Shown piece by piece: positions 1-60,462 of a DNA stretch of 64,000 bases. Source of the stretch: an uncultured Pseudomonadales bacterium (lineage in GTDB: Bacteria > Patescibacteriota > Microgenomatia > UBA1400 > UBA1396); NCBI GenBank assembly GCA_964511175.1, contig CAZEEI010000005.1, forward strand, positions 3,416-67,415, written 5' to 3'. Made by a program: the position numbers and the translations under genes. Under the pieces are notes generated by a model, which was given only the letters and a program-made list of their open reading frames with translations, searched no databases and had not been told where the DNA came from. Position 1 is the first letter of the stretch. The number at the start of each line of letters is the position of its first letter.

Positions 1-405
1 TGATATATCAGCATAAACAATAGGTCCCAATAATCCTTCTGGAGAACAATCGTCGATTTTGACGGGAAACAACTTACGTTTTAGTCCTTCTGGATCCGAT
101 TTAAAAAATACCGCCCATTCCGGTTGGGAAAATATCGACTTAAGGTAATTATTTGACAAAACGAGTACTGCCCTTTCGGAAACAATGATTCCTCGCTGCA
201 TTGATAAAACAAAATTATCACCTGAAGGAATGTCTACTGAGGCAATAAAAACCCTATACCCAGATTTTTTTAGTTGATCAGCAATCCAATTGGCAAAATC
301 ATGATCTTTAAATGAATAACTGACAAAAAAATCGAATTCGTAATCCTTCTTCTCAGAATTATTTTGATTGTCGTCCAAATTCTCGTTCTGGCTAACTCTA
401 CCCAT
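1..405 (-). CDS. TIR-domain protein, partial (N-terminal 135 aa visible; gene continues beyond window start)
   Basis: Manual translation of the minus strand from ATG at 405 (SD-like AAGGGA 9 nt upstream) gives MGRVSQNENLDDNQNNSEKKDYEFDFFVSYSFKDHDFANWIADQLKKSGYRVFIASVDIPSGDNFVLSMQRGII..SERAVLVLSNNYLKSIFSQPEWAVFF..DPEGLKRKLFPVKIDDC.. with no stop to position 1. This matches the bacterial TIR (TIR_2) pattern DxFxSY..D...A.W....L...G..V......I..G.N....RGI..S...V.V.S..Y..S.W...E. Local GC is clearly below the window average. Confidence 0.7.
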   Translation of the reverse strand, partial: MGRVSQNENLDDNQNNSEKKDYEFDFFVSYSFKDHDFANWIADQLKKSGYRVFIASVDIPSGDNFVLSMQRGIIVSERAVLVLSNNYLKSIFSQPEWAVFFKSDPEGLKRKLFPVKIDDCSPEGLLGPIVYADIS

Positions 406-503
406 AAAATCTCATCCCTTAATCTAAAATTCCCTAAAAACCATAGATTATAGGCGTGAAATAAATATATCTTCAATCTTCCCGTGTTACAATACACTCT
501 CTC

Positions 504-576
504 GAGTCTATAGCTCAGTTGGTAGAGCGCTTCGTTGACATCGAAGAGGTCACAGGTTCGAGTCCTGTTAGACTCA
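504..576 (+). tRNA. tRNA-Val (anticodon GAC)
   Basis: 73-nt cloverleaf: acceptor GAGTCTA/TAGACTC, D-arm GCTC-AGTTGGTA-GAGC, anticodon stem CTTCG/CGAAG with loop TTGACAT (anticodon GAC), T-arm ACAGG-TTCGAGT-CCTGT, discriminator A. Confidence 0.85.
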
Positions 577-597
577 CTTGTGCTACAATAAATCCCT

Positions 598-849
598 ATG
601 GCAGCCATTACAGCAGGTGGACGACAGCATCGAGAGCGTGTGGAGTGGATGAAGATAATGGGTGGTAACACCGGTTTTGGTGGTGGTCCTCGTCGACCAG
701 ATAAAGACCCCCAAGATGAAGACAAGTCTCTCCTGAAACGTTGCGAGCATTGGCTGGAACATTTTTATCATTCCCTTTACTGCTGGTGGATTAATGTTTG
801 GTATCCTCATCCGAAAAAAGATTCGCCCCAGAAACCACCGACCCGTTAA
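598..849 (+). CDS. hypothetical small protein (83 aa)
   Basis: ATG-initiated ORF directly after the tRNA; its stop lies 3 nt before the next ORF start. No recognisable domain. Confidence 0.25.
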   Translation: MAAITAGGRQHRERVEWMKIMGGNTGFGGGPRRPDKDPQDEDKSLLKRCEHWLEHFYHSLYCWWINVWYPHPKKDSPQKPPTR

Positions 850-1208: not shown

Positions 1209-1745
1209 TTAAAGCAGAGTGATGGTTAGTTCTAGGGGATCACTAGGGTCTTCCACCACTTGCAATTGCCCGGCTTTCTGTTCGGATAAAAGCAACTTTT
1301 TGGAGTTTTCCCAAACGTTAGCTTTATACCGGCGAATGCCGCGTTTTTTCAACTCTTTATGTTTTCGACGTAACAATAATCGTCCCAAACCATGGCGTCG
1401 GTACTCCCAGCCCACTCCCAAAAATGAAGTGATAAGTACTAGTTTGTCATCCTGTTTTTGGATTACACAGATCGCCACACCAATGGTTTTATTATCCAAC
1501 TTCGACCAAAGTATAAAGCTATTTTCTGCATGACCAGGTACTAGAGCGGCGTTCATCTCCTCAGTGGCCCAAAAAACCAGACGAAAACCATACTCAAAAT
1601 GCGGATCCTGAGAGTTTGCTTCGGTGAAGGCAATCTTTTCTTTTACTAAAAATTTGCGCAATTGCTCTTTGGCTGTTGGGCTAGCCGATACTAGCTCGAT
1701 GTTAACTCTCTTCAGAAAATCCTCTTGTTCCTTATCAAATGTCAT
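1209..1745 (-). CDS. GNAT family N-acetyltransferase
   Basis: 178 aa with an acetyl-CoA-binding motif A-like segment (VGWEYRRHGLGRLLL) and a typical GNAT size. Confidence 0.65.
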   Translation of the reverse strand: MTFDKEQEDFLKRVNIELVSASPTAKEQLRKFLVKEKIAFTEANSQDPHFEYGFRLVFWATEEMNAALVPGHAENSFILWSKLDNKTIGVAICVIQKQDDKLVLITSFLGVGWEYRRHGLGRLLLRRKHKELKKRGIRRYKANVWENSKKLLLSEQKAGQLQVVEDPSDPLELTITLL

Positions 1746-1757
1746 ATTTTCCTTTGC

Positions 1758-3278
1758 TTAGGGCAGGGTAAAAAATTGACTGACTAACGCTTGTCGCTGC
1801 GTTTCATTCCAACCAATCACTACATCTTGTCGCACGTAGAGGTCAGTTACCCGACCGTCGGCGCGATATAAATGGTAATACTGCTTCGTCAGGAGCGGCG
1901 CCAGCGATTGGTAATAGAAACTGCTGGGTTCGGTTTGGAAGTAAACAAAAGCAGGCGGTGCAGCCAACAAAGCCTGCCAGTCGGCCTGAAGTTTGGGTAC
2001 ATTCCAAGCCCAGTTGAGGTGAAACACCTGCTGGTCGGACGTTGGCAGGCTGGTCAGGATGTGCAAATACCCGTCGCCGTCTGGACCGGTCAGAAGAGTA
2101 TCGCCAGGATTCTTCACTAGGTTAAGCGCGTTGGCAATAGCTTGATAAGTCCCGTACTGGATTGCATTTTCGGCTAACCGATTTTTCCGTTCGGCCACCC
2201 AAACTAAATTACCAGTCAGCAAACCTAGCCATATTAGCAGTAATACCCCACGCGCTATTCGGCTGGGCCAGCGCCGCCAGACCGTGGTGGTAGCTACGGC
2301 CAATACTGCTGCCAAGGCTGCCAAATAGGGCCAGAGGTGAAAACCCTGGTAGAACCGAATATTAAAGTGGTCACTGCGGGTGTTTAGTAGCCAAAGACCA
2401 ATCAAAGCCAACCACCACGGCCAGCGTTTTTTACTTTGCCAAATCACCAAACTAACTAGCACAATCGCTGCCGCAAAAAGACGACCTATTGGCTCGCTAA
2501 GTGCCGCTGCTTGAATAAACGGATAAAACAATACGGCCCATCGGTTACCTGGCGTTGCCGCGGGAATGACGTAACGTACTGAAGTTAAAACCGTTTTCTC
2601 CCACCAAGCCGCTGGTGAAATCAGGCCAAACAAAGCGAGGGTCGGCAATAAACCGGCTAGCACTAATAACTTTTTTTGCGGCCAAGGCAGACGCCAAAGG
2701 AACCAGCCAGTCGCCAAGCCAACCAGTGGCCAGAGAGGTAAAAGGTTGAAAAAAGCCCCAAACAAGGCGATTGCCAAAGCAATTACATCAGGAACGGCTA
2801 AACGGTAGTAGGAATCTTGGGCTAAAGCGAAGTAGTAAAGCACAATCGCCGCCACCGCCGGCGCGGCCAAAGATTCACCCAACACATACCAGCCAAAAAA
2901 CCAGTGGGACAACGCCAGCAGCAGCGCACTAGTCAGCAAGCCGCGCCAACGGAAACGAGCCACCAGCCAGGCCGAGCTCACTGCTAAATACACCAGCATC
3001 ACCCAACGAATACGTTCGATTAGTAAGAAAAGCGAATTGTAGGGTAGTAGTTTAGTTAAAATCGCCCCAGCCAGCACCGGCAGAGGTTGGTGCGTTAAGG
3101 AAAGGTCGGTGTACAACCGGCGGCCGGACGACCACATCAGCCAACCCATCGTTAAGTGGTCGGTTTCATCCTGAAAATACCAGGATTGGGAGTGGGAGCG
3201 TAGTCCCCAACCAACCACTACCAACAAAATAAAGAAAATCGGCCAAATCAACCAAGATCGACGGGCAATTAATTTCAT
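1758..3278 (-). CDS. polytopic membrane protein, glycosyltransferase family 39/83-like (ArnT/PMT-type) candidate
   Basis: About 505 aa with more than 10 predicted TM helices (Trp/Leu/Ala-rich) and a C-terminal soluble domain. The supplied ORF starts at TTG 3287; ATG at 3278 gives MKLIARRSW. Confidence 0.5.
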   Translation of the reverse strand: MKLIARRSWLIWPIFFILLVVVGWGLRSHSQSWYFQDETDHLTMGWLMWSSGRRLYTDLSLTHQPLPVLAGAILTKLLPYNSLFLLIERIRWVMLVYLAVSSAWLVARFRWRGLLTSALLLALSHWFFGWYVLGESLAAPAVAAIVLYYFALAQDSYYRLAVPDVIALAIALFGAFFNLLPLWPLVGLATGWFLWRLPWPQKKLLVLAGLLPTLALFGLISPAAWWEKTVLTSVRYVIPAATPGNRWAVLFYPFIQAAALSEPIGRLFAAAIVLVSLVIWQSKKRWPWWLALIGLWLLNTRSDHFNIRFYQGFHLWPYLAALAAVLAVATTTVWRRWPSRIARGVLLLIWLGLLTGNLVWVAERKNRLAENAIQYGTYQAIANALNLVKNPGDTLLTGPDGDGYLHILTSLPTSDQQVFHLNWAWNVPKLQADWQALLAAPPAFVYFQTEPSSFYYQSLAPLLTKQYYHLYRADGRVTDLYVRQDVVIGWNETQRQALVSQFFTLP

Positions 3279-3362
3279 TATAACCAAGCGTACTGCCAGA
3301 TCTATGTTTAATCAATCGTGCTGACTGCCACACCGTATGCTTCCGTTTTAACTCGACTACTC

Positions 3363-4427: not shown

Positions 4428-4787
4428 ATGTCACGCGTTAAAACTGGTTTTCATCGTCACGCTCGTCACCAAAAAGTGCTTGGTTTCACCAAGGGCTACC
4501 GCATGACGAAAAACCGCCTATACAAAGTGGCGCACGAAGCCATGCTACACGCTGGTCAATACGCTTACATTGGCCGCAAGAATCGCAAACGCGACTTCCG
4601 CGCCCTCTGGATCACGCGTATCAGCGCCGCCGTCAAAGCGGTGTCGGCTCAACTTAATTATTCTCGCTTCATGAACCAACTCAAAGCCGCCAATATCGAG
4701 TTAGATCGCAAGATGCTAGCCGATTTAGCCGTACATGATTTGGACGCTTTTAGTGAGGTGGTTAAGGCCGCCGAAGCTAAAAAATAA
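4428..4787 (+). CDS. rplT: 50S ribosomal protein L20
   Basis: 119 aa, [26 protein letters not shown]...[14 protein letters not shown], typical L20. Confidence 0.9.
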
Positions 4788-4797
4788 AACGCCAAAC

Positions 4798-5220
4798 TTA
4801 TATCGCGTGCCTAGTACTATTCCGTTCAAGTTCGCTCTGCTTTTGTCGATAAAGCACTCGTTGCTCAATATCGCCAATTTGTGGTACCTTTTGTTGAGCG
4901 ATCGTGCTTAAAAGCAAATCACGCGCACCGGAATCTAGCCAGTCTTTAATCGGCAAGCGTAGTTTTTCGCCATTATTGGCTAGAATAATAATTTCTCCCC
5001 AGTGATGCCACACCTCCAGTTCAGGAATTAGCCCCACCACGCTATCTTCTTTAACCGACTGCCCACGCTGTCGAGCTAATAATCTGGACTGATCCAGAAA
5101 TCTCATCTCATCGCGAACGGCCACAATGTCTGTGGCCAATAATTGTGTAGTCCCAACCGCGACCATCAACTGAGGAGAGCCTTCTTTACTACTGCGACCT
5201 ACTGTTAATAATCTGTTCAT
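4798..5220 (-). CDS. hypothetical protein (140 aa)
   Basis: ATG with SD AAAGGA 8 nt upstream; no recognisable domain. Confidence 0.5.
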   Translation of the reverse strand: MNRLLTVGRSSKEGSPQLMVAVGTTQLLATDIVAVRDEMRFLDQSRLLARQRGQSVKEDSVVGLIPELEVWHHWGEIIILANNGEKLRLPIKDWLDSGARDLLLSTIAQQKVPQIGDIEQRVLYRQKQSELERNSTRHAI

Positions 5221-5235
5221 AATTTTCCTTTCCCA

Positions 5236-5266
5236 AACAAAAAACCCTCCTTGTGGAGGGTTTGTT
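5236..5266 (-). terminator. rho-independent terminator (hairpin CCCTCC-TTGT-GGAGGG plus U-tract on the minus strand; weaker on the plus strand)
   Basis: 6-bp GC stem at 5245-5260. On the minus strand it is followed by UUUUUUGUUU (complement of 5236-5244), and it sits downstream of the decarboxylase gene stop at 5406. Confidence 0.6.
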
Positions 5267-5405
5267 CGGCTGCTTTATTTTAGACTACGCGCTTAACCCT
5301 CCCCTTAATTTCGGGAAGAAAAAGAAAGACGCAAAAGAGAATACTATTAAACTTCTCATTAGGGCTAAGGTTACTATATTTATCCCCAATTGGCAAGCAG
5401 AGAAC

Positions 5406-6923
5406 CTACCTATTTGTCGCTGACTCAATTAACTGTTCCAGCAGGGTAATGGCCTCTTCAATATGTGTGGGCTCAGTGCGTGGATGCATTAATACGGCGC
5501 GGTAAGTCCATTGTTGTCTTTCAGCGGGTGACAAAGCATCAACTGACTCATCTACACTTAAGTTGGTGGCGGAAAAGAAATATCCCGACTGATCACGCAG
5601 TTGTTGTCTGGTTAACTCGATGATTGGCTCCAGTTGAGAATTATGGGTTATACCATGCCTGCGACAATACTCGGGTCGGATGGTGAAACAAACCACGTTG
5701 AGATGCGGCTTGTGCAGAGGCTGAAGTATCGGAGAGGCTAAGAGCCGTCGATAAAGGTACCCTGTATTATTCAGAGTGTGGTCTAAAAGTGCTTGCCACT
5801 CTTGTTTAGAAAAAGCATTGATGGCAGCCACGGTGGCTAAAACACAACCCGCCCCCGCCGATCCTTCAATTCTTTTCTGTCCAAGACTAACTTGTCCTGG
5901 CTTGAAAACATAAGCAGCATCATCCGAATCAAATTTTATTTTAGCGTGTTCATGAGGATCACGAAAAACGACTGCCCCAGCCTCATATGGCGTGTTTAAC
6001 GTTTTATGTGGATCCAGTGTAACCGAATTGGCTCTTTGAATACCCTTAAACAAATGTTTTTGGGTAGACATTAGATACGCAAATCCATAGGCGGCGTCTA
6101 CGTGGAGATAAATGTGATATTTCTTAGCGATATCCGCAATAGCATTAAGAGGGTCAACAATACCAGTTTCCGTTTCGCCAGCAATTGCGACAATTGCCAT
6201 AATTTTTTTGCCGCTGTCCGTAATTTCGCGGATCATCGCTTCTAGACCAGCCGGATCCATTTGGAGATTACGACTAGGAGCCTTAAGAACTGAGATTGAT
6301 CCATTGGGTCCGGCCAGAATGCGTACTGCTTTAGTGATGGAGTAATGGATAAACGGATTAGCAATAACGACGAACTCATTATTAGGACGTTCAGTGGTTG
6401 TTAGTCTTTCACGCTCAGCTTTTTCGGAGGCTAACTCACGGGCGACCCAAAGAGCGGTAAGGTTGGCCAGCGAGCCGCCGGAGGTAAAAGTCCCGCTGGC
6501 GCTCTTTTTGTCAAAACCAACTAACTCAGCCAACCAACCAATAGCCTCCGGTTCTAAGGCTGACTCTACTTCCGAAACTTCCCGGGCAACCGTATTAGAT
6601 CCAGACCGAATAGCCAGAATATATGCCAGCATCGCCGGAATTGAAGCCTCCGTCAACATATGACCAAGATAAAACTTATCAAAACGCTGCGCCTTTTTAA
6701 GGTGTTCAAAAATACGTTGAATAGCCTGCATCGCTTGGGGATTTTTTCTACTTACAAAACCCCGATCTCCATCCGCCATGTTTTGCAGAAGAATATAGAA
6801 TTGTTCGAGCTCGGCATCGTGATTTTCAGGGTCAAAAAAAGCAGCTCGCGCTGCCTCTAAATCAGATTGGTTAACCCTAAATTTAAACTCAGGATTTTGT
6901 TTTCGCGATCCTCGCTTATTCAT
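5406..6923 (-). CDS. pyridoxal-phosphate-dependent group II amino-acid decarboxylase (fold type I)
   Basis: HVDAAYGFAYL...SVTLDPHKTLNTPYEAGAVVFRD carries the S-x-HK PLP-lysine motif of GAD/TyrDC/MfnA-type decarboxylases. The supplied ORF starts at TTG 6983; ATG at 6923 (MNKRGSRKQ..., GGTGA upstream) is preferred. Confidence 0.8.
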   Translation of the reverse strand: MNKRGSRKQNPEFKFRVNQSDLEAARAAFFDPENHDAELEQFYILLQNMADGDRGFVSRKNPQAMQAIQRIFEHLKKAQRFDKFYLGHMLTEASIPAMLAYILAIRSGSNTVAREVSEVESALEPEAIGWLAELVGFDKKSASGTFTSGGSLANLTALWVARELASEKAERERLTTTERPNNEFVVIANPFIHYSITKAVRILAGPNGSISVLKAPSRNLQMDPAGLEAMIREITDSGKKIMAIVAIAGETETGIVDPLNAIADIAKKYHIYLHVDAAYGFAYLMSTQKHLFKGIQRANSVTLDPHKTLNTPYEAGAVVFRDPHEHAKIKFDSDDAAYVFKPGQVSLGQKRIEGSAGAGCVLATVAAINAFSKQEWQALLDHTLNNTGYLYRRLLASPILQPLHKPHLNVVCFTIRPEYCRRHGITHNSQLEPIIELTRQQLRDQSGYFFSATNLSVDESVDALSPAERQQWTYRAVLMHPRTEPTHIEEAITLLEQLIESATNR

Positions 6924-6995
6924 TATCACCGCTCCGTCAGAATTACAATTATTGATATTAGCATAAAAGATATTAATCGACAATATCCAATCAAT

Positions 6996-8093
6996 CTATA
7001 TCAATAGATTCTGAATTAATTCTTCATTTACAGCAAAACCTAATCCCAATTGTCGAGATACTTTGACGGTACCATTCTTGGTCATGGTAATTTCCGGCAC
7101 AATAATATCTTCTGTAAAAATCTTAGCCGAAGGAAAAATATCTGCTGGCAAACTAAACTCCGATAGTGAGGCGGTAAAAATATTAAAGGCATTAGCTATA
7201 CCCGCTTCCAACATGCCACCACACCATAGAGGGATATTTTGTTCTTTGGCCAACTGGTTAATTTGTAAAACCTCGACCAGACTGCCAATTCTTCCCGGCT
7301 TCACGTTAATAATGCCGCATGCTTTTAATTCTATGGCTTTTTTAGCTTTGGAATAACTAACAATGCTCTCATCCAAGCAAATTGGTGTTTTGATCTCTTT
7401 TTGTAATAATGAATGGTGCCAAAGGTCATCAAACTCCAAAGGTTGTTCAATCATTAATAAGTTAAAGTTATCCAATTGCTTGAACGTATCTAAATCATCG
7501 AGGGTGTAAGCTGAGTTAGCATCAACCATCAATACTAAATCGGGAAAAGACTGGCGAATAATTTTTACCAACTCCACATCCCAACCCGGCTTAATTTTCA
7601 CCTTAATACGATGATATCCTTCCTCAACACGCTTGGTAATTAGTTGCAAGGTTTCGTCAACGGTGGGTAAAATACCTATACTTTCGCCTAAATTTATCTC
7701 TCGACGTGTTCCGCCCAGCAAATCTACAATTGGTTTGCCCGAAATTTGGGAAATGATCGACCATAATGCACATTCCACGCCAAATTTAGCGATCTTATTG
7801 CCGCGTAAATGTTGTGTCTCTTGGTAGAAATCACTAGGTGTTAAAGCCTTATTCAAAACAATTGGTTTTAAAACATTTTCTAATATCGCTATAACCGTAT
7901 CGGTTGATTCCTCCAGATAAACAGGCTCCGTCAAGGCAGCTGACTCGCCGTAGCCAACAACGCCATCATCTGTTGTTAATTTAATAACCACCGTTTCCCG
8001 AAATGGTATGTCACCAAAACTAGTCTTGAAGGTAAACTTCATTGGCAGTCTCAGGCGAAAAATATCAAATCGGGCAATCTGAACGGGTGTCAT
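6996..8093 (-). CDS. enolase-superfamily enzyme, MLE subgroup (N-succinylamino-acid racemase / o-succinylbenzoate synthase / dipeptide epimerase-like)
   Basis: KVKIKPG (KxK), metal ligands in MVDANSAY, MIEQP, CLDES, and catalytic Lys in VKPGRIG; 365 aa; SD GGAGG 9 nt upstream of ATG. Confidence 0.8.
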   Translation of the reverse strand: MTPVQIARFDIFRLRLPMKFTFKTSFGDIPFRETVVIKLTTDDGVVGYGESAALTEPVYLEESTDTVIAILENVLKPIVLNKALTPSDFYQETQHLRGNKIAKFGVECALWSIISQISGKPIVDLLGGTRREINLGESIGILPTVDETLQLITKRVEEGYHRIKVKIKPGWDVELVKIIRQSFPDLVLMVDANSAYTLDDLDTFKQLDNFNLLMIEQPLEFDDLWHHSLLQKEIKTPICLDESIVSYSKAKKAIELKACGIINVKPGRIGSLVEVLQINQLAKEQNIPLWCGGMLEAGIANAFNIFTASLSEFSLPADIFPSAKIFTEDIIVPEITMTKNGTVKVSRQLGLGFAVNEELIQNLLI

Positions 8094-8135
8094 AAAACTA
8101 ACCTCCGGAGGCTCAATTATCCATTTATCTAACCA

Positions 8136-9092
8136 TTAACGCAAGCTTGGAGAAGATTGAACAACGTAAAAACTTCTCTTTTTTGAACCATCCAAACCCG
8201 TAGCAAATCCTGTGATAAGTCCCCGGCGATTAATATAATCGCTAGCTGTTTCACTGGTCATTACCTGGCTACATACTTGACGAAGCTGCACTCGCCAGGC
8301 CGCACTGTCAGCCGCGGATAAAGAATCTACATCGTAAGGTATTTCGACTAAAAATTTGTTGGGTAGTGATTTTGAACCAACTTCAGCAATAATCGGCAAG
8401 TTTGCCACATCATTGAGTGTTAGTGGTTGATAACTACCTGTGTGAATACCATTAAGACGTTTTTTTGTTGCAGGTTCATTAAGATTCCAGCGCACAGTAA
8501 AGCGATCGGTTGGATTCTCGCCATAGAGTTCACTGGATACTCTGCCATATTTGTTTACTGTGTATTTGTAACCGACAGCCCCTAATTTTTCTAAGTTTAA
8601 CCTAGCATTACTGCCGCGAAGCGGATCGTAAGTCCAATCTATTTCCGCAATCCCTTTAGCTTTAGCCAGTGCAGCTTGAATAAGCGAAAGATTCCAGCCC
8701 AGATCCTTACGGTAGCGCAGTGAGGGGTTGACACCGATCATATGTAAAATAAGCTTGCCGTCGATTGTACCCATAGTGAACACAAATCCTTCAAGCTGAC
8801 CCGAATTGTTCCGCGCAACAACAACATCCCCACCGGTATCACCAGCTATTGCTAGTAAATTACTGGGAACTAAATCCCGCGCGCCCATACCCCAGACCTG
8901 ACCCTGCAAACTGGTCACTTCTTCCAGAGCGGGAATATTCTTCCAATCCACCACTGAAAAAATAGTGTCTTTTCCGGCAAGCTCTTTTTGCCAAGAACGC
9001 GGGTCGACCTGTTGAAAACCAAAATTCTCCGGCCGCAGATATCCAGCTTTGTCTATTTCTATTCCTGAGTGTTCTTTTTTTTGAAAAGGCAT
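8136..9092 (-). CDS. hypothetical protein (318 aa), possibly an acyl-CoA N-acyltransferase-fold protein
   Basis: ATG with GGAG SD; no firm motif. Its position between an NSAR-like enzyme and an aminotransferase suggests a pathway role. The fold assignment is inference only. Confidence 0.45.
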   Translation of the reverse strand: MPFQKKEHSGIEIDKAGYLRPENFGFQQVDPRSWQKELAGKDTIFSVVDWKNIPALEEVTSLQGQVWGMGARDLVPSNLLAIAGDTGGDVVVARNNSGQLEGFVFTMGTIDGKLILHMIGVNPSLRYRKDLGWNLSLIQAALAKAKGIAEIDWTYDPLRGSNARLNLEKLGAVGYKYTVNKYGRVSSELYGENPTDRFTVRWNLNEPATKKRLNGIHTGSYQPLTLNDVANLPIIAEVGSKSLPNKFLVEIPYDVDSLSAADSAAWRVQLRQVCSQVMTSETASDYINRRGLITGFATGLDGSKKRSFYVVQSSPSLR

Positions 9093-9100
9093 CTATACTC

Positions 9101-10276
9101 CTATCTTTGATCCATGATGATCTTTAGCCGCCGATCCAATTCGTGTATATTCGCCTCATTGCCAGGTATACGTAGCCTAACTATTGAATCATCCATTTTT
9201 GCGTGAGTAGGTTTGAATGTTCCACCATCCTCAGAGCTAACTCCATATTCTAAGAGTTTGCCATAAAATCCTTCTGGTCCTCTGGCCATTAAAATACTTA
9301 CGGAAGGATGGGTGGGAGCCACGGCAACATTATTCGCCTGTAGAACCTCCACCAATTTAGTCTTCAGACTAGCAGTCTTAGCTCTAATTCCTGGTAAGAA
9401 CTTGGCCAGTATTTGAGAGTTAAGAGCAACTTGACTAAGCAAGTGAGTGATAGCATCGACGGTAAAAACCAGTTCAAAATTGCGGTACACATCACCCAAA
9501 TCCTTGGACATAACCGCATAACCCAAACGCGGAGAAGCCAGGCCTATCCCTTTAGAGATAGATCGCAAAACAATGAGATTAGAAAATTGTTCTGTCAATG
9601 GAATAGCCGAGTTCTGGTCGTCTATCAAATCGGCATAGGCTTCGTCAATGATAACGAGGTCTCTATTTTGAGTAACTTGAAGCAATCTGGATAACATTTG
9701 TTGGGTAACAGCGTCACCGGTTGGGTTGTTGGGATTATCAACATAAATTACCGCTTCTTTACGACTTTTTCTGCGATTATCAATCAGGGCCTGAATACTA
9801 TCTACCATTGGTGAGCCTAATTCCAGCTGAATGGGAAAATAGGGGATAGCAGCCCGGTCAGCCAGTAAAGCAATGTTAGTGAACTGCGGACCATAACCAA
9901 TCACTTGAGCGCCACCACGCACGGCATCATGAGAAACAAAGTCTGATAATATTGCCGCTAACAGGCCATAGCTCCCTGCACCATTAAAGAAAATCGGAGA
10001 AATTGGATTGCCGTCTTTATCTCTGTGATCGGTAAGACCAAAACGTCTTCGCACACTCTCTTGCAACTTACGAGCGTAAGGATCCTCGGGATATTCATTG
10101 ATCAAGCGTGGCGTAATTTTGCGGAGAGCGGCATTAATTTCTCTAGGATATCCCAATGGTGAATGTCCTAAACCGCAATCAATTAGAGGAAAATTAGGGT
10201 TAGTTTTAGGCTTCTGAGAAACATAATCTTCACGCTCAATGGGCCTCTTTAACAATCTTGCTCTGACTTTATTCAT
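9101..10276 (-). CDS. class I/II pyridoxal-phosphate aminotransferase (HisC-like)
   Basis: LVIIDEAYADL...LIVLRSISKGIGLASPRLGYAV with the SxSK PLP lysine; 391 aa. Confidence 0.8.
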   Translation of the reverse strand: MNKVRARLLKRPIEREDYVSQKPKTNPNFPLIDCGLGHSPLGYPREINAALRKITPRLINEYPEDPYARKLQESVRRRFGLTDHRDKDGNPISPIFFNGAGSYGLLAAILSDFVSHDAVRGGAQVIGYGPQFTNIALLADRAAIPYFPIQLELGSPMVDSIQALIDNRRKSRKEAVIYVDNPNNPTGDAVTQQMLSRLLQVTQNRDLVIIDEAYADLIDDQNSAIPLTEQFSNLIVLRSISKGIGLASPRLGYAVMSKDLGDVYRNFELVFTVDAITHLLSQVALNSQILAKFLPGIRAKTASLKTKLVEVLQANNVAVAPTHPSVSILMARGPEGFYGKLLEYGVSSEDGGTFKPTHAKMDDSIVRLRIPGNEANIHELDRRLKIIMDQR

Positions 10277-10325
10277 ATTTTACAAGTATATGGGTTTTGC
10301 ATATTTTACAAGTATATGGGTTTTG
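10274..10325. repeat. perfect tandem direct repeat, 2 x 26 bp (CATATTTTACAAGTATATGGGTTTTG)
   Basis: Copies at 10274-10299 and 10300-10325 are identical. Copy 1 includes the aminotransferase start codon (CAT is the complement of ATG). Confidence 0.85.
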
Positions 10326-10363
10326 TTCGTGCTGTCAATAATTAGTCATGATAGAATTTAACC

Positions 10364-11440
10364 ATGACCAAAACTCGGGAAGATCTATTAAAAATAATTA
10401 AATCTTTAGTAAGCTACCAAACAACTAATGATAATTTCGCTGCCATTACGGAATGTTATAACTATGTTGATCGACAATTAGATTTTTTCCCATTCCATAA
10501 AAAAATTATCAACCACAACGGTGTCAAGTCGCGCCTTTGGACAACCACAAAAAATAAACATCACACCTATATTTTAAATGCCCACGTCGATGTTGTGCCG
10601 GGAAGTAATAAATTATTCGCTCTGCGGCGCAAAAACGATAAACTATTTGGCCGTGGTGTTTCCGATATGAAGTACGCCATAGCGGTTTACATCCAAACTT
10701 TGCGCACTTTATACGAAAAAACAAAACGGCTGCCATCTCTGGCCCTAATCCTGACCGCAGATGAAGAGCGGGGCGGCCTAAATGGGACGGGCTATCTGGT
10801 TAAAGATTTGGGTTATCGGGCTGACCTTGCTTTTGTGCCGGATGGAGCAGAAAACGATCGTATTGTTGAAGAAGCCAAAGGAGTACTACAACTTAAAATT
10901 ACAACGCGGGGTAGGAGTGCTCATGCCGCGCGATTGTGGGAGGGGATAAGTGCCATTGATAATTTATGTCAAGTAATTGATCAATTGCGCCAGAAATACC
11001 CTTTTCCATCCAAACCCGTCTGGAAGACAACTTTAAACTTAGGGCAAATTAGTGGCGGGCAACAAACTAACCAGGTGGCAGATGAGGCTTCTCTTCTAGT
11101 CGATATTCGTTATACACCCAATCAATCCACGGCAAATATCTTGGAAAACATACGTAAAATTTGCCCAGGTTGTTTGGTAGAAATAGTTGTTAAAGCCGAT
11201 GCTTTTCAGATCAATCGTCAAAATCCTTATATCCAGAAATGGAACCAGATTTTAACTAAAGGCGATAAAAATGCATTTATCCGTGAAGACGGGGCTTCGG
11301 ATGGCCGCTACTTTACCGCCCAAGGAATTCCAACCATTGTTAGTAAACCAGAAGGTGGCCTCATTCATACGGAAAAGGAGTGGACCAGCCTTAGTTCGAT
11401 TGAACATTTCAGCCAATGTTTACAGCAGTTTCTCTCATAG
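10364..11440 (+). CDS. M20 family metallo-hydrolase (ArgE/DapE/N-acyl-amino-acid deacylase-like)
   Basis: LNAHVDVVPG, GRGVSDMKYAIAVYI (DMK motif), ADEERGG; 358 aa. Confidence 0.8.
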   Translation: MTKTREDLLKIIKSLVSYQTTNDNFAAITECYNYVDRQLDFFPFHKKIINHNGVKSRLWTTTKNKHHTYILNAHVDVVPGSNKLFALRRKNDKLFGRGVSDMKYAIAVYIQTLRTLYEKTKRLPSLALILTADEERGGLNGTGYLVKDLGYRADLAFVPDGAENDRIVEEAKGVLQLKITTRGRSAHAARLWEGISAIDNLCQVIDQLRQKYPFPSKPVWKTTLNLGQISGGQQTNQVADEASLLVDIRYTPNQSTANILENIRKICPGCLVEIVVKADAFQINRQNPYIQKWNQILTKGDKNAFIREDGASDGRYFTAQGIPTIVSKPEGGLIHTEKEWTSLSSIEHFSQCLQQFLS

Positions 11441-11476
11441 TGGGAGTTATTGCTATATAATGCAGTAGGAAACAGC

Positions 11477-12520
11477 ATGACATTATCAGAATTCAAACAA
11501 GAAATTGATTCAGCTCAACAAAAACTTACCGATCTATCGGAGTCAGCCGAACTTAAGACGCTTTTTTTCAGTAAAAAAAGTGGTATTTTCACCAAATTAT
11601 CCAAGGAGTTAGCAAATTTATCTGGTGATAAAAAAGAGGCTGGACTACTTTTATGTTCTTTAAGAATTAAAATTGATAAACAAATAAGAAAGTTGTCAAG
11701 CAATACTCATTCTGTTTGGCAGGATCCCACCCTGCCGCCAGAGGACGTTGAGCTAGGTCGTCTGCACCCCGTTTCCCAGGCCATCCGCGACATCACCCGC
11801 ATTTTTGAGCGGATCGGCTTCACCCGCGCACGTTACCCGGAAGTGGACTGGGACTACTACGCTTTCACCAGCCTCAACATGCCGGCTAATCATCCCGCCC
11901 GCGATGAATGGGAGACTTTCTTTGTGGACGCACCGGCTAATGCGGAGAAGGGCAAAATGGTTCTCACTCCCCACACCAGTAACGGCCAGGTACGGGAAAT
12001 GGAACGCCTCCATCACCAGCCACCGATCCGCATGATTAATATTGCCCGTTGTTACCGTCGTCAACAAGATGTGACTCACACCCAGATGTTCCACCAATTT
12101 GAAGGGTTGGTGGTAGACCAGGGGATCAATATCCAGCACCTCAAAGGCACCATTGATCATTTTGCTCATGAGTTTTACGGTCCAGGCACCAAGTCACGAT
12201 TGCGCCCTTTTCATTTTCAGTTCACCGAGCCATCTTTTGAGGTCGATTTTTCTTGTACCATTTGTGGTGGTTCTGGCAAGGTACTTGACGGTGAAAAGAG
12301 TGAAAAATGCCGTTTTTGTAAATCCGGCTGGCATGAAGTAGGGGGCGCCGGCATGGTCCATCCCAACGTCCTGCGTGCCGGCGGTATTGATCCAGAGGTG
12401 TACACTGGTTTTGCCTTCGGCTGGGGAATCGAACGCACTTATGCCCTCCAAAAAGGTTTAAACCTCGACGATATTCGTCAGCTTTATAGTAGTGATTTAC
12501 GTTTTCTGCAGCAATTCTAG
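11477..12520 (+). CDS. pheS: phenylalanine--tRNA ligase alpha subunit
   Basis: FTEPSFEVDF...GWHEVGGAGMVHPNVL...FAFGWGIER class II motifs. The supplied ORF starts at TTG 11450; ATG 11477 has an AGGAAA SD. Contains a CxxC...CxxC insertion. Confidence 0.88.
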   Translation: MTLSEFKQEIDSAQQKLTDLSESAELKTLFFSKKSGIFTKLSKELANLSGDKKEAGLLLCSLRIKIDKQIRKLSSNTHSVWQDPTLPPEDVELGRLHPVSQAIRDITRIFERIGFTRARYPEVDWDYYAFTSLNMPANHPARDEWETFFVDAPANAEKGKMVLTPHTSNGQVREMERLHHQPPIRMINIARCYRRQQDVTHTQMFHQFEGLVVDQGINIQHLKGTIDHFAHEFYGPGTKSRLRPFHFQFTEPSFEVDFSCTICGGSGKVLDGEKSEKCRFCKSGWHEVGGAGMVHPNVLRAGGIDPEVYTGFAFGWGIERTYALQKGLNLDDIRQLYSSDLRFLQQF

Positions 12521-47618: not shown

Positions 47619-49310
47619 ATGAGCCTTCATGGGATATCCCAAGCGATTTTGCCGAAACGTGAGTTCCTACCGAATTATATTTTTGTGTCGGGTGGAGTGC
47701 TGTCATCACTGGGTAAAGGCACTACCACCGCCTCCATTGCCTTACTGCTGAAGTCGCGCGGCTACCAAGTCACGATCGTTAAGTGCGAAAATTACCTCAA
47801 TATTGATGCTGGTTTAATTAATCCGATCGAACACGGCGATGCTTTTCTCTGCGAAGATGGTACCGAAGCCGACATGGACTTGGGTACCTACGAACGCTTC
47901 ATCAACCAAGACTTAGGACGGCATAATTTTGTCACGATGGGCCAAATCTACCAGACGGTAATCGAACGCGAACGGGCTTTTGGTTATAAGGGCGAAGACG
48001 TAGAGGCCGTGCCACACGTTACTGACGAAATCATTGACCGTATTAACGAAGCCGCACGACGCGATAAAGCCGAAGTGGTAATTGTGGAGCTTGGCGGCAC
48101 GGCCGGCGAGTACCAAAACGCTCTTTACTACGAAGCCTCCCGCATCTTGGATTACCAGCATGGTAACCGGGTGGTCCACGTGCACGTCAGCTACTTACCT
48201 ACACCAGCGCATATCGGTGAACCCAAGACCAAACCCACCCAGCTGTCGGTACGCAACCTCAATAGTATGGGCGTCCAACCAGATTTCATTGTTACCCGCG
48301 CCACGCGTCCCATCGACGAGCGCCGACGGGAAAGATTGGGCTTGTTTTGTCACGTTCCCTGCGAAAACGTAATTGACAGTCCGGATGTCAGCAACATTTA
48401 TGAAATTCCTCTAATCTTAGCCCAGCAGGAGTTTGATATAAAACTACTGCACCAGTTACACCTGCCAACGCGCCGCCTTAACTTGCGCCGGTGGCAAAAA
48501 TACGTTACCCAAGCTAAAGCACCCAAAACTCAAACGGCAACGATTGGCATTATTGGCAAGTACTTTGCCACCGGCGATTACGAGCTACGTGATTCCTATG
48601 CTGCTTTGTTGGAGGCTATTAATCACGCTGCGGTAGCCGCCAACGCCCAAACTAAAGTAGTTTGGGTTAACGCCGAAGAATTAGCCAAAGTGGAAAAGGC
48701 CGAAACTTTGTTGGGCCAATTGGACGGCATTATTGTGCCGATCGGCTGGGGCGAACGCGGGGTGGAGGGTAAAATCCGTGGTATCGCTTACGCCCGGGAA
48801 AACAAGATCCCATATTTAGGTCTTTGCTACGGCATGCAACTGGCAGTGGTAGAGTACGCCCGCCACGTGTTGGGTTGGCCGGACGCCCACACCACGGAGG
48901 TTAACCCTGATACTACTCATCCGGTTATTCACATCATTCCTGAGCAAAAACGGGTTCTGGAAAACCGCGCCTACGGTGGCACCATGCGGCTGGGACGATG
49001 GGATTGTCACCTAACCAAAAATACTGAGGTACAGCGCATCTACCAAAAAGACTTAATTGCGGAGCGCCACCGCCACCGCTATGAGTTCAATGACCAATTT
49101 GCTAAACAACTAACTAAGGGTGGTTTAGTGATTGCCGGCCGTTCGGTGCAGGAAAATTTGGTGGAGTTTATTGAATTGCCCAGGAGCGTCCACCCGTTTT
49201 TTGTGGGGACGCAGGGACACCCGGAATATAAGTCCAGACCGCTACAACCGCACCCGTTGTTTGTGGCGTTTGTGCAGGCGGCACTGCAACAGAGTATTGC
49301 TAAGTTATAG
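47619..49310 (+). CDS. pyrG: CTP synthase
   Basis: YIFVSGGVLSSLGKG, glutamine amidotransferase LGLCYGMQ. A perfect TATAAT at 47605-47610 lies only 8 nt before ATG 47619, which suggests a leaderless or very short-leader mRNA. Confidence 0.9.
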   Translation: MSLHGISQAILPKREFLPNYIFVSGGVLSSLGKGTTTASIALLLKSRGYQVTIVKCENYLNIDAGLINPIEHGDAFLCEDGTEADMDLGTYERFINQDLGRHNFVTMGQIYQTVIERERAFGYKGEDVEAVPHVTDEIIDRINEAARRDKAEVVIVELGGTAGEYQNALYYEASRILDYQHGNRVVHVHVSYLPTPAHIGEPKTKPTQLSVRNLNSMGVQPDFIVTRATRPIDERRRERLGLFCHVPCENVIDSPDVSNIYEIPLILAQQEFDIKLLHQLHLPTRRLNLRRWQKYVTQAKAPKTQTATIGIIGKYFATGDYELRDSYAALLEAINHAAVAANAQTKVVWVNAEELAKVEKAETLLGQLDGIIVPIGWGERGVEGKIRGIAYARENKIPYLGLCYGMQLAVVEYARHVLGWPDAHTTEVNPDTTHPVIHIIPEQKRVLENRAYGGTMRLGRWDCHLTKNTEVQRIYQKDLIAERHRHRYEFNDQFAKQLTKGGLVIAGRSVQENLVEFIELPRSVHPFFVGTQGHPEYKSRPLQPHPLFVAFVQAALQQSIAKL

Positions 49311-49510
49311 CGGTAATTTTTTTAACCCTATTGGATGACTGAACGGGTTCGCAGATGAATTGAGGGTGTTTTGAGTCAAGATTCAAGACACTAGATAAAA
49401 CAATAGTGTTTGGGTATAATTCGTATCTAGCAAACTGTCGAGGAATGTTATATAAAATTATCTAATCTCGTAACACTTTCGTAATATTCTCGTAGTAAAG
49501 TAAGAAGAGT

Positions 49511-49675
49511 ATGAAAAAAAATAAATCCAAAACCACTATCCGAGATATTGAAAGAGAATACAAAATAGACTTTGGGGTCAGTGGTGATATGAATCTAAGT
49601 ACTTACCTAAAAAATCAAGGTCTTTTATCCCTCAGTCGTTTCCTTAAAAAAATAGAGTCTAGACCTAGTATTTAA
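49511..49675 (+). CDS. small hypothetical protein (54 aa) in AT-rich island
   Basis: ATG ORF MKKNKSKTTIRDIEREYKIDFGVSG..., 4 nt upstream of the next ORF; region GC is about 30%. Confidence 0.3.
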   Translation: MKKNKSKTTIRDIEREYKIDFGVSGDMNLSTYLKNQGLLSLSRFLKKIESRPSI

Positions 49676-49679
49676 TTAA

Positions 49680-50210
49680 ATGCCTGATTCTCTTGTTCTT
49701 TGGCATAACATTAAGACCACATTTAGTGATGTTGCTGTTCAATACAAACACGCTCAATCCGTGGGTACTAGAGCTAGAACAGGTTATTATCGAGCTGCTT
49801 TTATACTTCTAGCTTCTATCGTAGAGGCTATGTTATATCGCCTAATAGAAAAAGCTATTGATCAAGATGAATCTGTTGTCCAAAGACAACAATTTGAAAG
49901 AATAAAAAAGATTCAAAAAGTTAATAGTTCCCATATTGGAACAAATAAAACCATTTATATTTGCGAAATATATAAAGAAAATTTTATTTTAACTCCAGAA
50001 AAATCCAAGTTTAGTGGTATGAATACTTTCTGTCTAACATCTGGATTAATTGACTTACAGCTATATAAAAAGATTGATAAAGTAGTAAAAAAGAGGAAAG
50101 AAATACACCTTCAAGGTCTTGTTACAAAAAGAAGACAATACAATGAATTAACTTTAGATATGGCAGGAGAATTAATGGATGAAATTTTGGCAAAGATAGA
50201 TTCTATTTAA
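49680..50210 (+). CDS. hypothetical protein (176 aa) in AT-rich island
   Basis: ATG ORF with AT-rich codon usage unlike its neighbours; no recognised domain. Confidence 0.5.
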   Translation: MPDSLVLWHNIKTTFSDVAVQYKHAQSVGTRARTGYYRAAFILLASIVEAMLYRLIEKAIDQDESVVQRQQFERIKKIQKVNSSHIGTNKTIYICEIYKENFILTPEKSKFSGMNTFCLTSGLIDLQLYKKIDKVVKKRKEIHLQGLVTKRRQYNELTLDMAGELMDEILAKIDSI

Positions 50211-50315
50211 TTTTCATTCATTCATTTACTTGTTTATATTAAGGAGGTGCCCCCAAAGCCTCTCGACTATCAGCTAATTCCTGCTATAATAGACCCCTCA
50301 AGCAAAGGCTGATCT

Positions 50316-50657
50316 ATGGCAAATAACTTAACTTTTAACGAGCAACGCTTCAACGTGGGTGACACCGTGCGTGTCCACCAGCGGATTACCGAAGCCGGCA
50401 AGTCGCGTATCCAGATTTTGGAAGGCGTTATCATTGCCATCAATAATCGGGAAAGCGGCAAATCCTTTATTGTGCGCAAAATCGGCGCCAACGGCATCGG
50501 GGTCGAGCGTATTTTTCCCCTCAATTCACCAGCAATCGTTAAATTGGAAATGAAACAGGCCGGCCGGGTTCACCGCGCCAAGTTATTCTACCTGCGTAAC
50601 CGGATTGGTAAGGCGGCTTCAGCCATTAAAAAGCGCCTCATTACTACCGAAGCGTAA
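50316..50657 (+). CDS. rplS: 50S ribosomal protein L19
   Basis: [12 protein letters not shown]...[15 protein letters not shown]...FIVRKI typical L19. Promoter-like TCGACT-N16-TATAAT upstream. Confidence 0.9.
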
Positions 50658-58701: not shown

Positions 58702-60462
58702 TTATTTGACCGTAACGCTTTTGGCCAAATTCCGCGGCCGATCAGGATTATTGCCCCGTAAAATGGCCAGGTGGTAGGCCAGCAGCTGGCTGAAGAGCGC
58801 GGCGGCGGCGAGTTGAGCCAAAGGTTCTTCCGGCAAGATAATGGATCGGTCAAATACCGCATCCGATTGGGTTGCGATCCCCACGAGCCAGCCGCCGCGC
58901 GCTTTTAACTCCAGCGCCGTGGTTATCGTTTCCGTCTGCTGTTGAGCCGAACCAAATAACAAGCACGGCACTCCCGCCTCAATTAAGGCCAAAGTTCCGT
59001 GTTTTAACTCACCGGCTGCCATCGCTTCTGCGTGCAAATAACTAATCTCTTTAATCTTCAGAGCTGCTTCTAAGGCGATCGGTAAAAATGAACCACGCCC
59101 TAACAAAAAAAGATTAGGTTGATTGGTCAGTTCTTTGGCTAATTGTTCGATTTTACCCAGCCAAATTTGATCCCGTAGTAAGCTGTCCAATACCTCTGCT
59201 GCTGCTTCAACCGAACACTTTCCTGCGGAGAAGTGGCCGCTAATCATCTGGGATAACCAAAAAAGCAGAGCCATTTTAGCCATGAAGGCTTTAGTCGAAG
59301 CCACCGCTTTTTCCCGACCGGCCGCTAATTGTAATTTAAGGTCGGCCATCCGGTCTAAGGTTGACCAGGGGGAGTTGGTAATAGCGATCACCTTGGCGCC
59401 GCGCGCCTGCCACTGGATCAACGGCTCAACCACATCAATAGTTTCACCACTCTGAGAAAGTACAACTACTACTGTTCCCTCGGCGATGAAACGTGTGAAA
59501 GAAGACGCCTCACTCGCTAAAATCGTACGGGAAGCAATGCCTTGGGCTGCTAAAAATTGTTCACCAAGTAGAGCGGCGTGCCAGGCTGTTCCGCAAGCTA
59601 GGAAGTAAATTGCCGGTGCTTTGACTAGGCGATCAACTACCGGTTGCAGTTCTGTCTCAGCGCGCTGACTCAGACGATGAAGTACTGTCGGTTGTTGGTT
59701 AATTTCGCGCAACATTTGGTGGGGGAAACGACCATCATCTTGATCAATCGTATCGGCCGATATTTGACGCCATACCGGCATTATCACTTCTCCCGATTCT
59801 TGGTAAAACCAAGCTTGCTCGGCCGATAATTGAGCCAACTGGCCATCGGCTAGAAATAAGACTTGGTTAGTCAAACTGGCCAGCGCGGCGCCGTCAGAAG
59901 CCACTGCGTAACCATCGGCCAAACGACCTACGGCTAAAGGGGAACCGCGTCGCCCTAAAAATAGGCGCCGCGCGCGCAAGGCCAGCAGTACCACCGCATT
60001 CAAACCGGTCAACCGTGACCACGTCTGTTGCCAGGCTTGCCAAACATCCCCACACTGCTGGTAGTTGGCCACCATTAAGTGAACAATCACTTCGGAGTCG
60101 GTTTCGGAACGGAAACTGTATCCCTGATTTTGCAATTCCTCACGCAGCAACAAAAAGTTTTCAACAATACCGTTATGAACTACGGCAAATTGGCCGTCCG
60201 CACTCAAATGCGGATGGGCGTTAGCTACGGTTACGCCGCCGTGGGTAGCCCAACGGGTATGGCCGATACCCAATTGGGTAGGTTGCCAATGCAAAGATTC
60301 CACTTTAATCGGCCCCACTTCTTTGTGTGTCTCCAACCGACCATTTTGTTCGACAGTCACGCCCCAGGAGTCATAACCCCGGTACTCCAAATCCCGCAAT
60401 CCAGCCAAGATTTCGTCAGCGGGATGTTTTTTACTGGTCACTAAACCAAAGATGCCGCACAT
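58702..60462 (-). CDS. glmS: glutamine--fructose-6-phosphate aminotransferase
   Basis: MCGIFG N-terminal nucleophile; two SIS domains; 586 aa. Confidence 0.9.
   Translation of the reverse strand: MCGIFGLVTSKKHPADEILAGLRDLEYRGYDSWGVTVEQNGRLETHKEVGPIKVESLHWQPTQLGIGHTRWATHGGVTVANAHPHLSADGQFAVVHNGIVENFLLLREELQNQGYSFRSETDSEVIVHLMVANYQQCGDVWQAWQQTWSRLTGLNAVVLLALRARRLFLGRRGSPLAVGRLADGYAVASDGAALASLTNQVLFLADGQLAQLSAEQAWFYQESGEVIMPVWRQISADTIDQDDGRFPHQMLREINQQPTVLHRLSQRAETELQPVVDRLVKAPAIYFLACGTAWHAALLGEQFLAAQGIASRTILASEASSFTRFIAEGTVVVVLSQSGETIDVVEPLIQWQARGAKVIAITNSPWSTLDRMADLKLQLAAGREKAVASTKAFMAKMALLFWLSQMISGHFSAGKCSVEAAAEVLDSLLRDQIWLGKIEQLAKELTNQPNLFLLGRGSFLPIALEAALKIKEISYLHAEAMAAGELKHGTLALIEAGVPCLLFGSAQQQTETITTALELKARGGWLVGIATQSDAVFDRSIILPEEPLAQLAAAALFSQLLAYHLAILRGNNPDRPRNLAKSVTVK

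Follow-up and report, generated by a model that had tools for sequence, protein, structure and literature searches.

Thoeris anti-phage systems (types I-XI) are built around ThsB, a small TIR protein, and a recent survey found their TIR genes paired with some 29 effector classes, many of them of unknown function, as well as ThsB genes occurring in tandem (Yirmiya et al. 2025 preprint, 10.64898/2025.12.03.692087). Other TIR proteins that resemble the one described here are the TIR-X proteins of Bacillales plasmids, whose function is itself uncharacterised, the STAND/NLR-like proteins, and the Tcp-type TIR NADases, which have been studied mostly as virulence factors. Here we compare with these systems a TIR gene at the left edge of a 64,000-nucleotide stretch of DNA (the window) from an uncultured Pseudomonadales bacterium, placed among the Patescibacteriota by GTDB (GenBank assembly GCA_964511175.1, contig CAZEEI010000005.1, positions 3,416 to 67,415, forward strand). 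The original prediction, made from the window alone, had taken this gene for the probable edge of a defence island beside tRNA-Val, with its effector domain and partner genes further to the left. Instead, the gene encodes a complete stand-alone TIR protein on an AT-rich insert of 1,375 bp, which carries three open reading frames (ORFs): the TIR gene (P0001), an 81-amino acid truncated TIR (P0002) and a 163-amino acid orphan (P0003).

Two Logan contigs, each from a separate run, extended the window leftwards, so that 4.8 kb are known on that side: L002 with 5.4 kb and L003 with 3.1 kb. Their overlaps with the window, of 552 and 1,009 bases, respectively, showed 100% identity, and L003 spanned both junctions of the AT-rich block. 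That is, the block is not an assembly artefact: two independent assemblies agree with the window. As had been predicted, the minus strand from position 405 to the left edge (position 1) encodes a TIR domain, of which 135 amino acids are visible (MGRVSQNENLDDNQNNSEKKDYEFDFFVSYSF...PIVYADIS), and this fragment matched Pfam TIR_2 (PF13676) with 92.2 bits (E=4.4e-26; cutoff 28 bits). A word-indexed search of 5.8 billion proteins with the fragment as query returned a single match, the 100% identical P0001 of 168 amino acids, whose stop codon lies 33 codons beyond the window edge. Full-length P0001 scored 95.3 bits (E=4.7e-27), above the curated gathering cutoff of 28, and its match covered positions 1-118 of the 122 of the profile, that is, the full domain. 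Besides this match, which spans nearly the whole profile, no second domain was found in P0001; its N-terminal tail comprises 25 polar amino acids.

The proposal that the SQPEW segment places a Glu at the catalytic position held up as well. In the alignments, this residue, E96, fell on the Glu of PdTIR (3h16) and on E208 of AbTIR (numbering taken from a published AbTIR paper), and it is kept in 4/4 aligned plasmid-borne TIR-X relatives. F92-S-Q-P-E96 of P0001 lined up with W204-T-E-Y-E208 of AbTIR, the WxxxE-type motif being kept as FxxxE, while G62 corresponded to AbTIR G174. In AbTIR, E208 is reportedly catalytic and E208A inactive, G174A is said to show little activity or none, and TIRs producing cyclic ADP-ribose (ADPR) products reportedly share an aromatic residue at the position of W204. 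The sequence features of enzymatic NAD+-cleaving TIRs are present in P0001: the catalytic Glu in helix alpha-C (AbTIR E208 / SARM1 E642 position), an aromatic residue four positions before the Glu (F92) and the Gly of the BB-loop (G62). Judged from its sequence, P0001 is a complete stand-alone TIR domain protein that carries the catalytic residues of this class.

Protein lengths in the P0001 subfamily were sampled through plasmids (tblastn, 33 records) plus one genomic match. The closest relatives were all longer, namely the TIR-X proteins of Planococcus (P. lenghuensis WP_077591405.1, 387 amino acids, 49% identity) and Bacillus (388-394 amino acids; B. cereus AH820 WP_012477848.1 with 388 and ~40% identity), followed by proteins of an Agrobacterium pTi (321), Bosea (315) and Methylobacterium (238 amino acids). 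FxsT-type TIR-TPR proteins (785 amino acids) and, as the sole genomic match, a Rhodothermales TIR-nSTAND1-WD40 protein (L001, 1,271 amino acids) were also related. In a multiple alignment, P0001 was colinear across the whole TIR and terminated in the inter-domain linker of the longer relatives (238-1271 amino acids). Since the relatives are colinear but longer, with the TIR as their N-terminal module, and P0001 ends in their linker, this TIR subtype is a shuffled immune module that here stands alone, and the effector or partner domain once expected to the left is missing from the gene.

The two TIR-X proteins are similar to P0001 over the whole TIR domain and share with it the (S/T)QPEW catalytic motif, which is common to P0001 and the Bacillales proteins (the Agrobacterium protein reads AASEW), the DxxPGxNF BB-loop and the (L/I)xPV(K/R)I motif. 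Unlike P0001, which stops in the linker, they continue after a PFPG linker into a conserved C-terminal region of ~240 amino acids, to which P0003 is unrelated. The same TIR subtype occurs in STAND/NLR-like proteins (TIR-nSTAND1-WD40; FxsT TIR-TPR; Avs-like) that are 34-40% identical to P0001, and the motif LFPVKIDDC is common to P0001 and the Rhodothermales protein. However, P0001 has no NTPase or repeat sensor, either in cis or in neighbour genes, and is not one of them. The Agrobacterium relative (39% identity) matched the PADLOC ThsB model PDLC00420 over its full length (E 1.6e-25), and two CHAT-domain genes adjoin it.

Among solved structures, PdTIR (3h16, E 2e-5), MyD88, the Acinetobacter TIR (7uxr, 7uwg, 8g83) and TcpB were the best matches of P0001. 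As the Tcp-type NADases (PdTIR 3H16, AbTIR, TcpB/BtpA) are TIR-only like P0001, the protein might have a function outside defence, either as a Tcp-like stand-alone TIR acting on another organism (as TcpB/BtpA, TcpC or PdTIR-type proteins) or within the cell itself, in signalling or NAD metabolism. The similarity to the Tcp-type proteins is remote (E 2e-5 to 2e-3) and these carry N-terminal coiled-coil or other extensions. We regard a function outside defence as highly improbable. The closest sequence relatives of P0001 are found in immune-type architectures, neither a signal peptide nor a transmembrane (TM) segment was detected in P0001 (KD19 maximum 1.35), and no secretion-system linkage was seen in the flanks. 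A core physiological role is hard to reconcile with the lack of the TIR in every related genome.

Composition marks the insert as foreign. Its content of guanine plus cytosine (GC) is 0.356, against a mean of 0.483 (standard deviation 0.038) and a minimum of 0.367 among 647 non-overlapping windows of the same size. Its tetranucleotide distance (0.49 versus 0.27+/-0.04) was reached by 0/647 windows and its dinucleotide signature lies in the top 1.2%; in GC and tetranucleotide signature, it is the most deviant segment of the 68.8 kb at hand. GC at third codon positions is 0.30 in the TIR gene and 0.28 in gene 3 (encoding P0003), compared with a mean of 0.49 and a minimum of 0.367 in 33 long ORFs. 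The GC dip seen from the first 600 bases (0.34-0.37) is thus real and exceeds local variation, although the background of the window is ~0.48 and not 0.50 as first stated.

To the left of the insert lie a convergent conserved gene for a protein of 266/288 amino acids (X gene), a PPIase-less trigger factor (Tig), GreA and a sortase; to its right follow tRNA-Val(GAC), small membrane genes, GNAT, IF3, L35 and L20. Related genomes were found via homologues of the flanking trigger factor, and in the closest ones IF3 was 80-83%, L20 and L35 ~87% and PheS 69% identical to the window proteins. The order in the relatives is sortase, GreA, Tig, X gene, tRNA-Val(GAC) on the plus strand, small membrane gene, ThrRS or GNAT, IF3, L35 and L20. 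Their sites are empty: between the X gene and the tRNA, or the conserved leader of the latter, there are no more than 5-52 bp in L008, L009 and L010, and likewise in L015/L016 and L017/L018/L019, which are more distant. Since the backbone is kept with so short a spacer in seven related loci from five lineages, the insertion is lineage-specific. A conserved housekeeping context across related genomes had been named as a finding that would refute the original prediction. The outcome is the reverse: such a context exists, yet none of the relatives carries the TIR block in it. In the still more distant L004, Tig is followed by a gene for a 226-amino acid protein, 33 bp and an inverted tRNA-Val; no similarity of this protein to the 288-amino acid product of the X gene was detectable.

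Both junctions could be placed by comparison with the relatives. Conservation with the relatives begins at window position 481 with CCCGTG (CCCGTGTTACAATAC..., alignment A1), and on the other side the native C-terminus of the X gene product (...GE, then stop) is intact, its stop codon being 2 bp from that of gene 3; these two boundaries delimit the foreign block of ~1.37 kb (Table 1). The probable extended -10 element of tRNA-Val abuts the insertion junction, is conserved across the relatives and reads TGGTAAAAT in L008 and L010. This leader promoter is probably able to work without a -35 element, and an insertion directly upstream of tRNA-Val may have been tolerated for this reason.

Table 1. 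Features of the insert and its right-hand junction. Window positions count from the first base of the window (negative numbers lie beyond its left edge); L002 positions refer to the Logan contig.
Feature	Position	Strand	Evidence and remarks
AT-rich insert	window -895 to 480 (L002 73-1448); in-window part 1..480		composition and empty sites in relatives
P0001 TIR gene, first 135 of 168 codons	window 1..405; whole gene L002 148-654	-	translation and Pfam TIR_2; remainder is 102 nt beyond the left edge
TIR gene 5' leader and promoter-like region	window 406..480	-	promoter scan and alignment A1; ends at the right-hand insert junction (~480)
Gene 2, P0002, 81-amino acid truncated TIR	L002 663-908, off-window		partial TIR_2 match; begins 9 bases after the TIR stop
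Gene 3, P0003, 163-amino acid orphan	L002 955-1446, off-window		no credible homologue
tRNA-Val leader with probable extended -10 promoter (TGnTACAAT at 485-493)	window 481..503	+	invariant in four genomes, alignment A1; backbone, outside the insert
tRNA-Val(GAC)	window 504..577	+	ARAGORN; Rfam tRNA, 75.2 bits; backbone gene, same place in all relatives

A TIR gene, low GC and the adjacency of a tRNA, correctly recognised as tRNA-Val(GAC) (the only tRNA of the window, 98 bp from the TIR gene), had suggested that a larger defence island, with partners further left, was integrated at tRNA-Val and that the gene marked its right-hand end. L002 and L003 refute this explanation: P0001 ends at 168 amino acids, the foreign DNA ends 895 bp past the window edge after a truncated TIR and an orphan, and conserved housekeeping genes follow. 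The insert shares with tRNA-linked islands that foreign AT-rich DNA lies directly beside a tRNA gene. Unlike these, it is only 1.37 kb long and precedes the 5' end of tRNA-Val, on the side of its promoter, instead of adjoining the 3' end; it has no integrase, all of it being taken up by the three small ORFs, and no duplicated tRNA segment. A search of the insert for a tRNA-derived direct repeat, which had been proposed as a possible mark of an integration boundary, for terminal repeats and for att-like repeats gave only short chance matches. No donor DNA was found in viral contig scans (P0001, P0003), in phage tblastn (P0001) or in plasmid and phage blastn (whole cassette). As a separate observation, L009 carries ~400 bp of extra DNA with a 131-amino acid ORF (7834-8229) on the 3' side of the same tRNA-Val, so that the DNA to either side of this tRNA differs from genome to genome.

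The three genes of the insert are co-directional and tightly packed, with a coding density of 90%. The longest open frame, that of gene 3 with 199 codons, was not reached in any of 1,000 shuffled versions of the block (mean 81, maximum 165). Shine-Dalgarno (SD)-like sites are found at all three ORFs, the one upstream of the TIR ATG being the purine-rich AAGGGA. Inside the insert, 35-60 nt upstream of the TIR start, lies a sigma-70-like TTGAAG-18-TATAAT (window 476-447, 10/12 matches), a weak candidate since the promoter scan total was near shuffle expectation. The 10-mer TAGATTAAGG precedes the start codons of both the TIR gene and gene 3 (repeat family D3; L003 584-606 and 1396-1418, that is, window 426-404 and an off-window copy); it may represent a common translation-initiation region, or chance in AT-rich DNA.

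P0001 and P0002 are the only two TIR-like segments in the 68.8 kb. P0002 matched just the first half of TIR_2 (profile 2-57, E 8e-5, under the family cutoff) and is 30% identical to residues 17-87 of P0001. It ends six codons past the SNRY (SNxY) of beta-C; at the position of the catalytic PEW the frame reads stop-G-W, and the remaining domain is missing. Most likely, gene 2 has decayed: P0002 corresponds to the N-terminal 60% of a paralogous TIR and breaks off shortly ahead of the catalytic helix. Upstream, the 199 open codons of the gene 3 frame reach back into gene 2; genes 2 and 3 were also considered as one frameshifted TIR-X gene, but two conceptual repairs left the TIR_2 match ending at about profile position 60, and this candidate was set aside as unsupported or untestable.

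The whole insert could be such a decaying relic, the non-functional remnant of a larger TIR system (multi-ThsB Thoeris, TIR-X or TIR-STAND) that has lost its sensor and effector parts and is leaving a compact genome. The truncation of P0002 right after SNxY, where neither frameshift repair restores the domain, the stop of P0001 exactly in the inter-domain linker of all longer relatives and the absence of a known partner from the cassette are all consistent with this. We nevertheless consider a relic possible but unlikely, because the TIR domain of P0001 is complete and none of its key residues is missing, the frames are far longer than expected at 36% GC, the coding density is high, each ORF has an SD-like site, and the three assemblies are identical in sequence, with no sign of ongoing decay.

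P0003 retrieved only itself from the 5.8 billion proteins of the word-indexed search, no relative was found in the PDB, and no TM-like segment was seen. Several candidates were rejected. P0029 (E 1e-5), its one other match among 1.84 billion representatives, is a beta-rich surface protein whose match was due to chance and amplified by repeats, a protein with leucine-rich repeats (LRR) / InlB-B-repeats, and the weak leads to PADLOC AriA (E 4e-4) and HamB (E 5e-3) and to a TetR-family PDB chain (E 0.08) were not significant. That P0003 might be the C-terminal domain of the TIR-X relatives, split off as a separate protein, was likewise rejected: BLAST was negative, and when P0003 was compared with two alignments of this region, hhalign gave probabilities of only 0.2% and 0.07%. 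All three insert proteins are singleton clusters.

A TIR without a sensor might also be a constitutive NADase toxin, restrained by P0003 or by P0002 as a decoy, in a selfish toxin-antitoxin-like module that stabilises the cassette and yields abortive infection as a possible by-product. A small, tightly packed, co-directional and self-promoted module on foreign DNA without mobility genes would suit this explanation, as would a TIR lacking the C-terminal domain of its relatives and the pairing of a basic P0001 (predicted isoelectric point 8.8) with an acidic P0003 (5.8). We think it quite unlikely: neither P0003 nor P0002 has homology to any antitoxin or immunity family, half a flavodoxin-like fold would hardly be stable alone, and in type II toxin-antitoxin modules a toxin-first gene order is atypical. 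Very unlikely, too, is a new minimal three-part TIR immune module, captured by a bacterium of compact genome, in which P0003 would be a previously unseen TIR partner (a Thoeris-type effector, or a regulator licensing the sensor-less TIR) and P0002 an assembly-blocking decoy.

How does the cassette compare with the known TIR-based defence systems? It resembles Thoeris in its small TIR with a catalytic Glu and an aromatic 'cyclase' residue, in a second TIR gene in tandem and in a small adjacent gene of unknown function. Unlike in Thoeris, no recognised effector adjoins P0001 and the candidate partner P0003 is a singleton: in P0002, P0003 and the six flanking proteins, no Pfam or PADLOC domain of a Thoeris effector (SIR2-SLOG, Macro/TM, caspase-like, DUF2270 and others) was detected, and a recurrent pairing of TIR and effector across genomes was not seen. 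An adjacent CD-NTase or pyrimidine cyclase, or a TIR-STING or TIR-SAVED fusion, as in CBASS and Pycsar, was found neither in the cassette nor in its flanks. The same holds for the APAZ domain and adjacent pAgo of SPARTA, PADLOC models of the TIR-APAZ type matching only the first ~60 TIR residues. The Thoeris, CBASS/Pycsar or NLR-like partners that the original prediction had envisaged are thus absent, with no SIR2/SLOG, Macro, cyclase or STAND NTPase in the cassette or the flanks. What stood of that prediction was a genuine bacterial TIR with its catalytic Glu on foreign DNA that the relatives lack; the island edge, the left-hand partners and a tRNA-type integration had to be given up.

The AT-rich cassette of ~1.37 kb was acquired horizontally, its target being the spacer of 5-52 bp that separates a conserved gene from the promoter of tRNA-Val. 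The most likely explanation, to which we give an even chance, is that it represents an anti-phage module of the Thoeris kind, based on a TIR and either minimal or partly eroded, which would act by abortive infection or signalling. Upon infection, the TIR of P0001 would self-associate on a trigger and cleave NAD+, resulting either in NAD+ depletion or in a cyclic-ADPR-type signal; since the aromatic F92 occupies the 'cyclase' position, a cyclic product would be favoured. The orphan P0003 would be the partner of the TIR, as effector, sensor or regulator, and the half-TIR P0002 a relic. In favour of this explanation are the TIR_2 match over the full domain, the correspondence of E96, F92 and G62 to key residues of AbTIR, the NADase-type bacterial TIRs PdTIR and AbTIR as best solved relatives, and the coding features and insertion of the cassette. 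The immune-type contexts of the relatives (a ThsB match beside CHAT genes, TIR-nSTAND1-WD40, FxsT-TPR) also support it, as do the tandem TIR genes of the insert, which recall multi-ThsB Thoeris loci, and the great diversity of Thoeris effectors.

A number of observations weigh against an anti-phage role. The cassette contains no recognised effector, sensor or cyclase, and one of its three genes (P0002) is visibly degraded. ThsB models gave only weak partial matches to P0001 (best 21.5 bits, E 3e-5, ~50 residues), and no relatives of P0001 were found in phage collections. An exhaustive HMMER search of 1.84 billion representatives with P0003 returned one match besides itself and no credible homologue; P0003 has no Pfam or PHROG match and no credible PADLOC match, and because it is a singleton, no recurrent pairing of the TIR with a partner can be demonstrated. 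Structure models, made without an alignment, failed for both proteins: that of P0001 reached a predicted local distance difference test score (pLDDT) of 34, and that of P0003, all-helical, was of low confidence (pLDDT 50) and counted as failed. Known defence genes, the mark of a defence island, were not found near the insert, as none of the six neighbour proteins scanned had a PADLOC match. Finally, the authors of the Thoeris survey expressly excluded stand-alone TIRs, which they regarded as not assignable (10.64898/2025.12.03.692087).

Further features were noted elsewhere in the window and beside it. A second AT-rich islet at 48,900-50,400, between pyrG and an rplS-like gene (the latter read from its translation alone), has a GC of 0.367 and the second most deviant tetranucleotide signature, and its composition resembles that of the TIR cassette. 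It holds two plus-strand ORFs, 49511-49675 (54 amino acids) and 49680-50210 (176 amino acids), the longer of which had no PDB, plasmid or phage match. At 1,209-3,287, the place between the small membrane gene and IF3 is taken by a GNAT acetyltransferase (orthologue in L010) and a 509-amino acid membrane protein (orthologue in L009). In L008, L009, L015 and L017, the gene found there is ThrRS, which is not at that place in the window. Six genes of lower GC (0.39-0.45) at 4,790-11,445, between rplT (4428-4787) and pheS (11450-12520), include a pyridoxal-phosphate (PLP)-dependent decarboxylase, a MenC-like enolase-superfamily enzyme, a 318-amino acid unknown protein, an aminotransferase and an M20 DapE/ArgE-like peptidase; since the rplT-pheS gap is only 77 bp in L008, they probably represent another insertion, larger than that of the TIR cassette and metabolic in content. 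The trigger factor of this lineage has ~300 amino acids (L002 2361-3266; homologues P0004-P0025) and consists of Trigger_N and Trigger_C without an FKBP/PPIase domain, which more distant matches of 428-484 amino acids do have. The glmS gene (58702-60462) is directly preceded by a glmS ribozyme (Rfam RF00234, 60.2 bits; 60,510-60,720, minus strand).

A stand-alone TIR on a small acquired cassette belongs to an already known kind and is not mechanistically surprising; as it stands, the main use of our analysis is a corrected annotation of another bacterial TIR gene on small acquired DNA. Beyond this, the locus offers a natural example of the TIR module of TIR-X/NLR-like proteins standing alone and ending at the inter-domain linker, which bears on the shuffling of TIR domains between immune architectures. 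The insertion is unusually precise, without mobility genes and in a spacer of a few bases beside what is probably an extended -10 tRNA promoter; together with the second islet of similar composition, it may help to explain how compact genomes acquire small AT-rich cassettes. The orphan P0003 is a candidate TIR partner, and the cassette, if active, would be among the smallest TIR-based systems.

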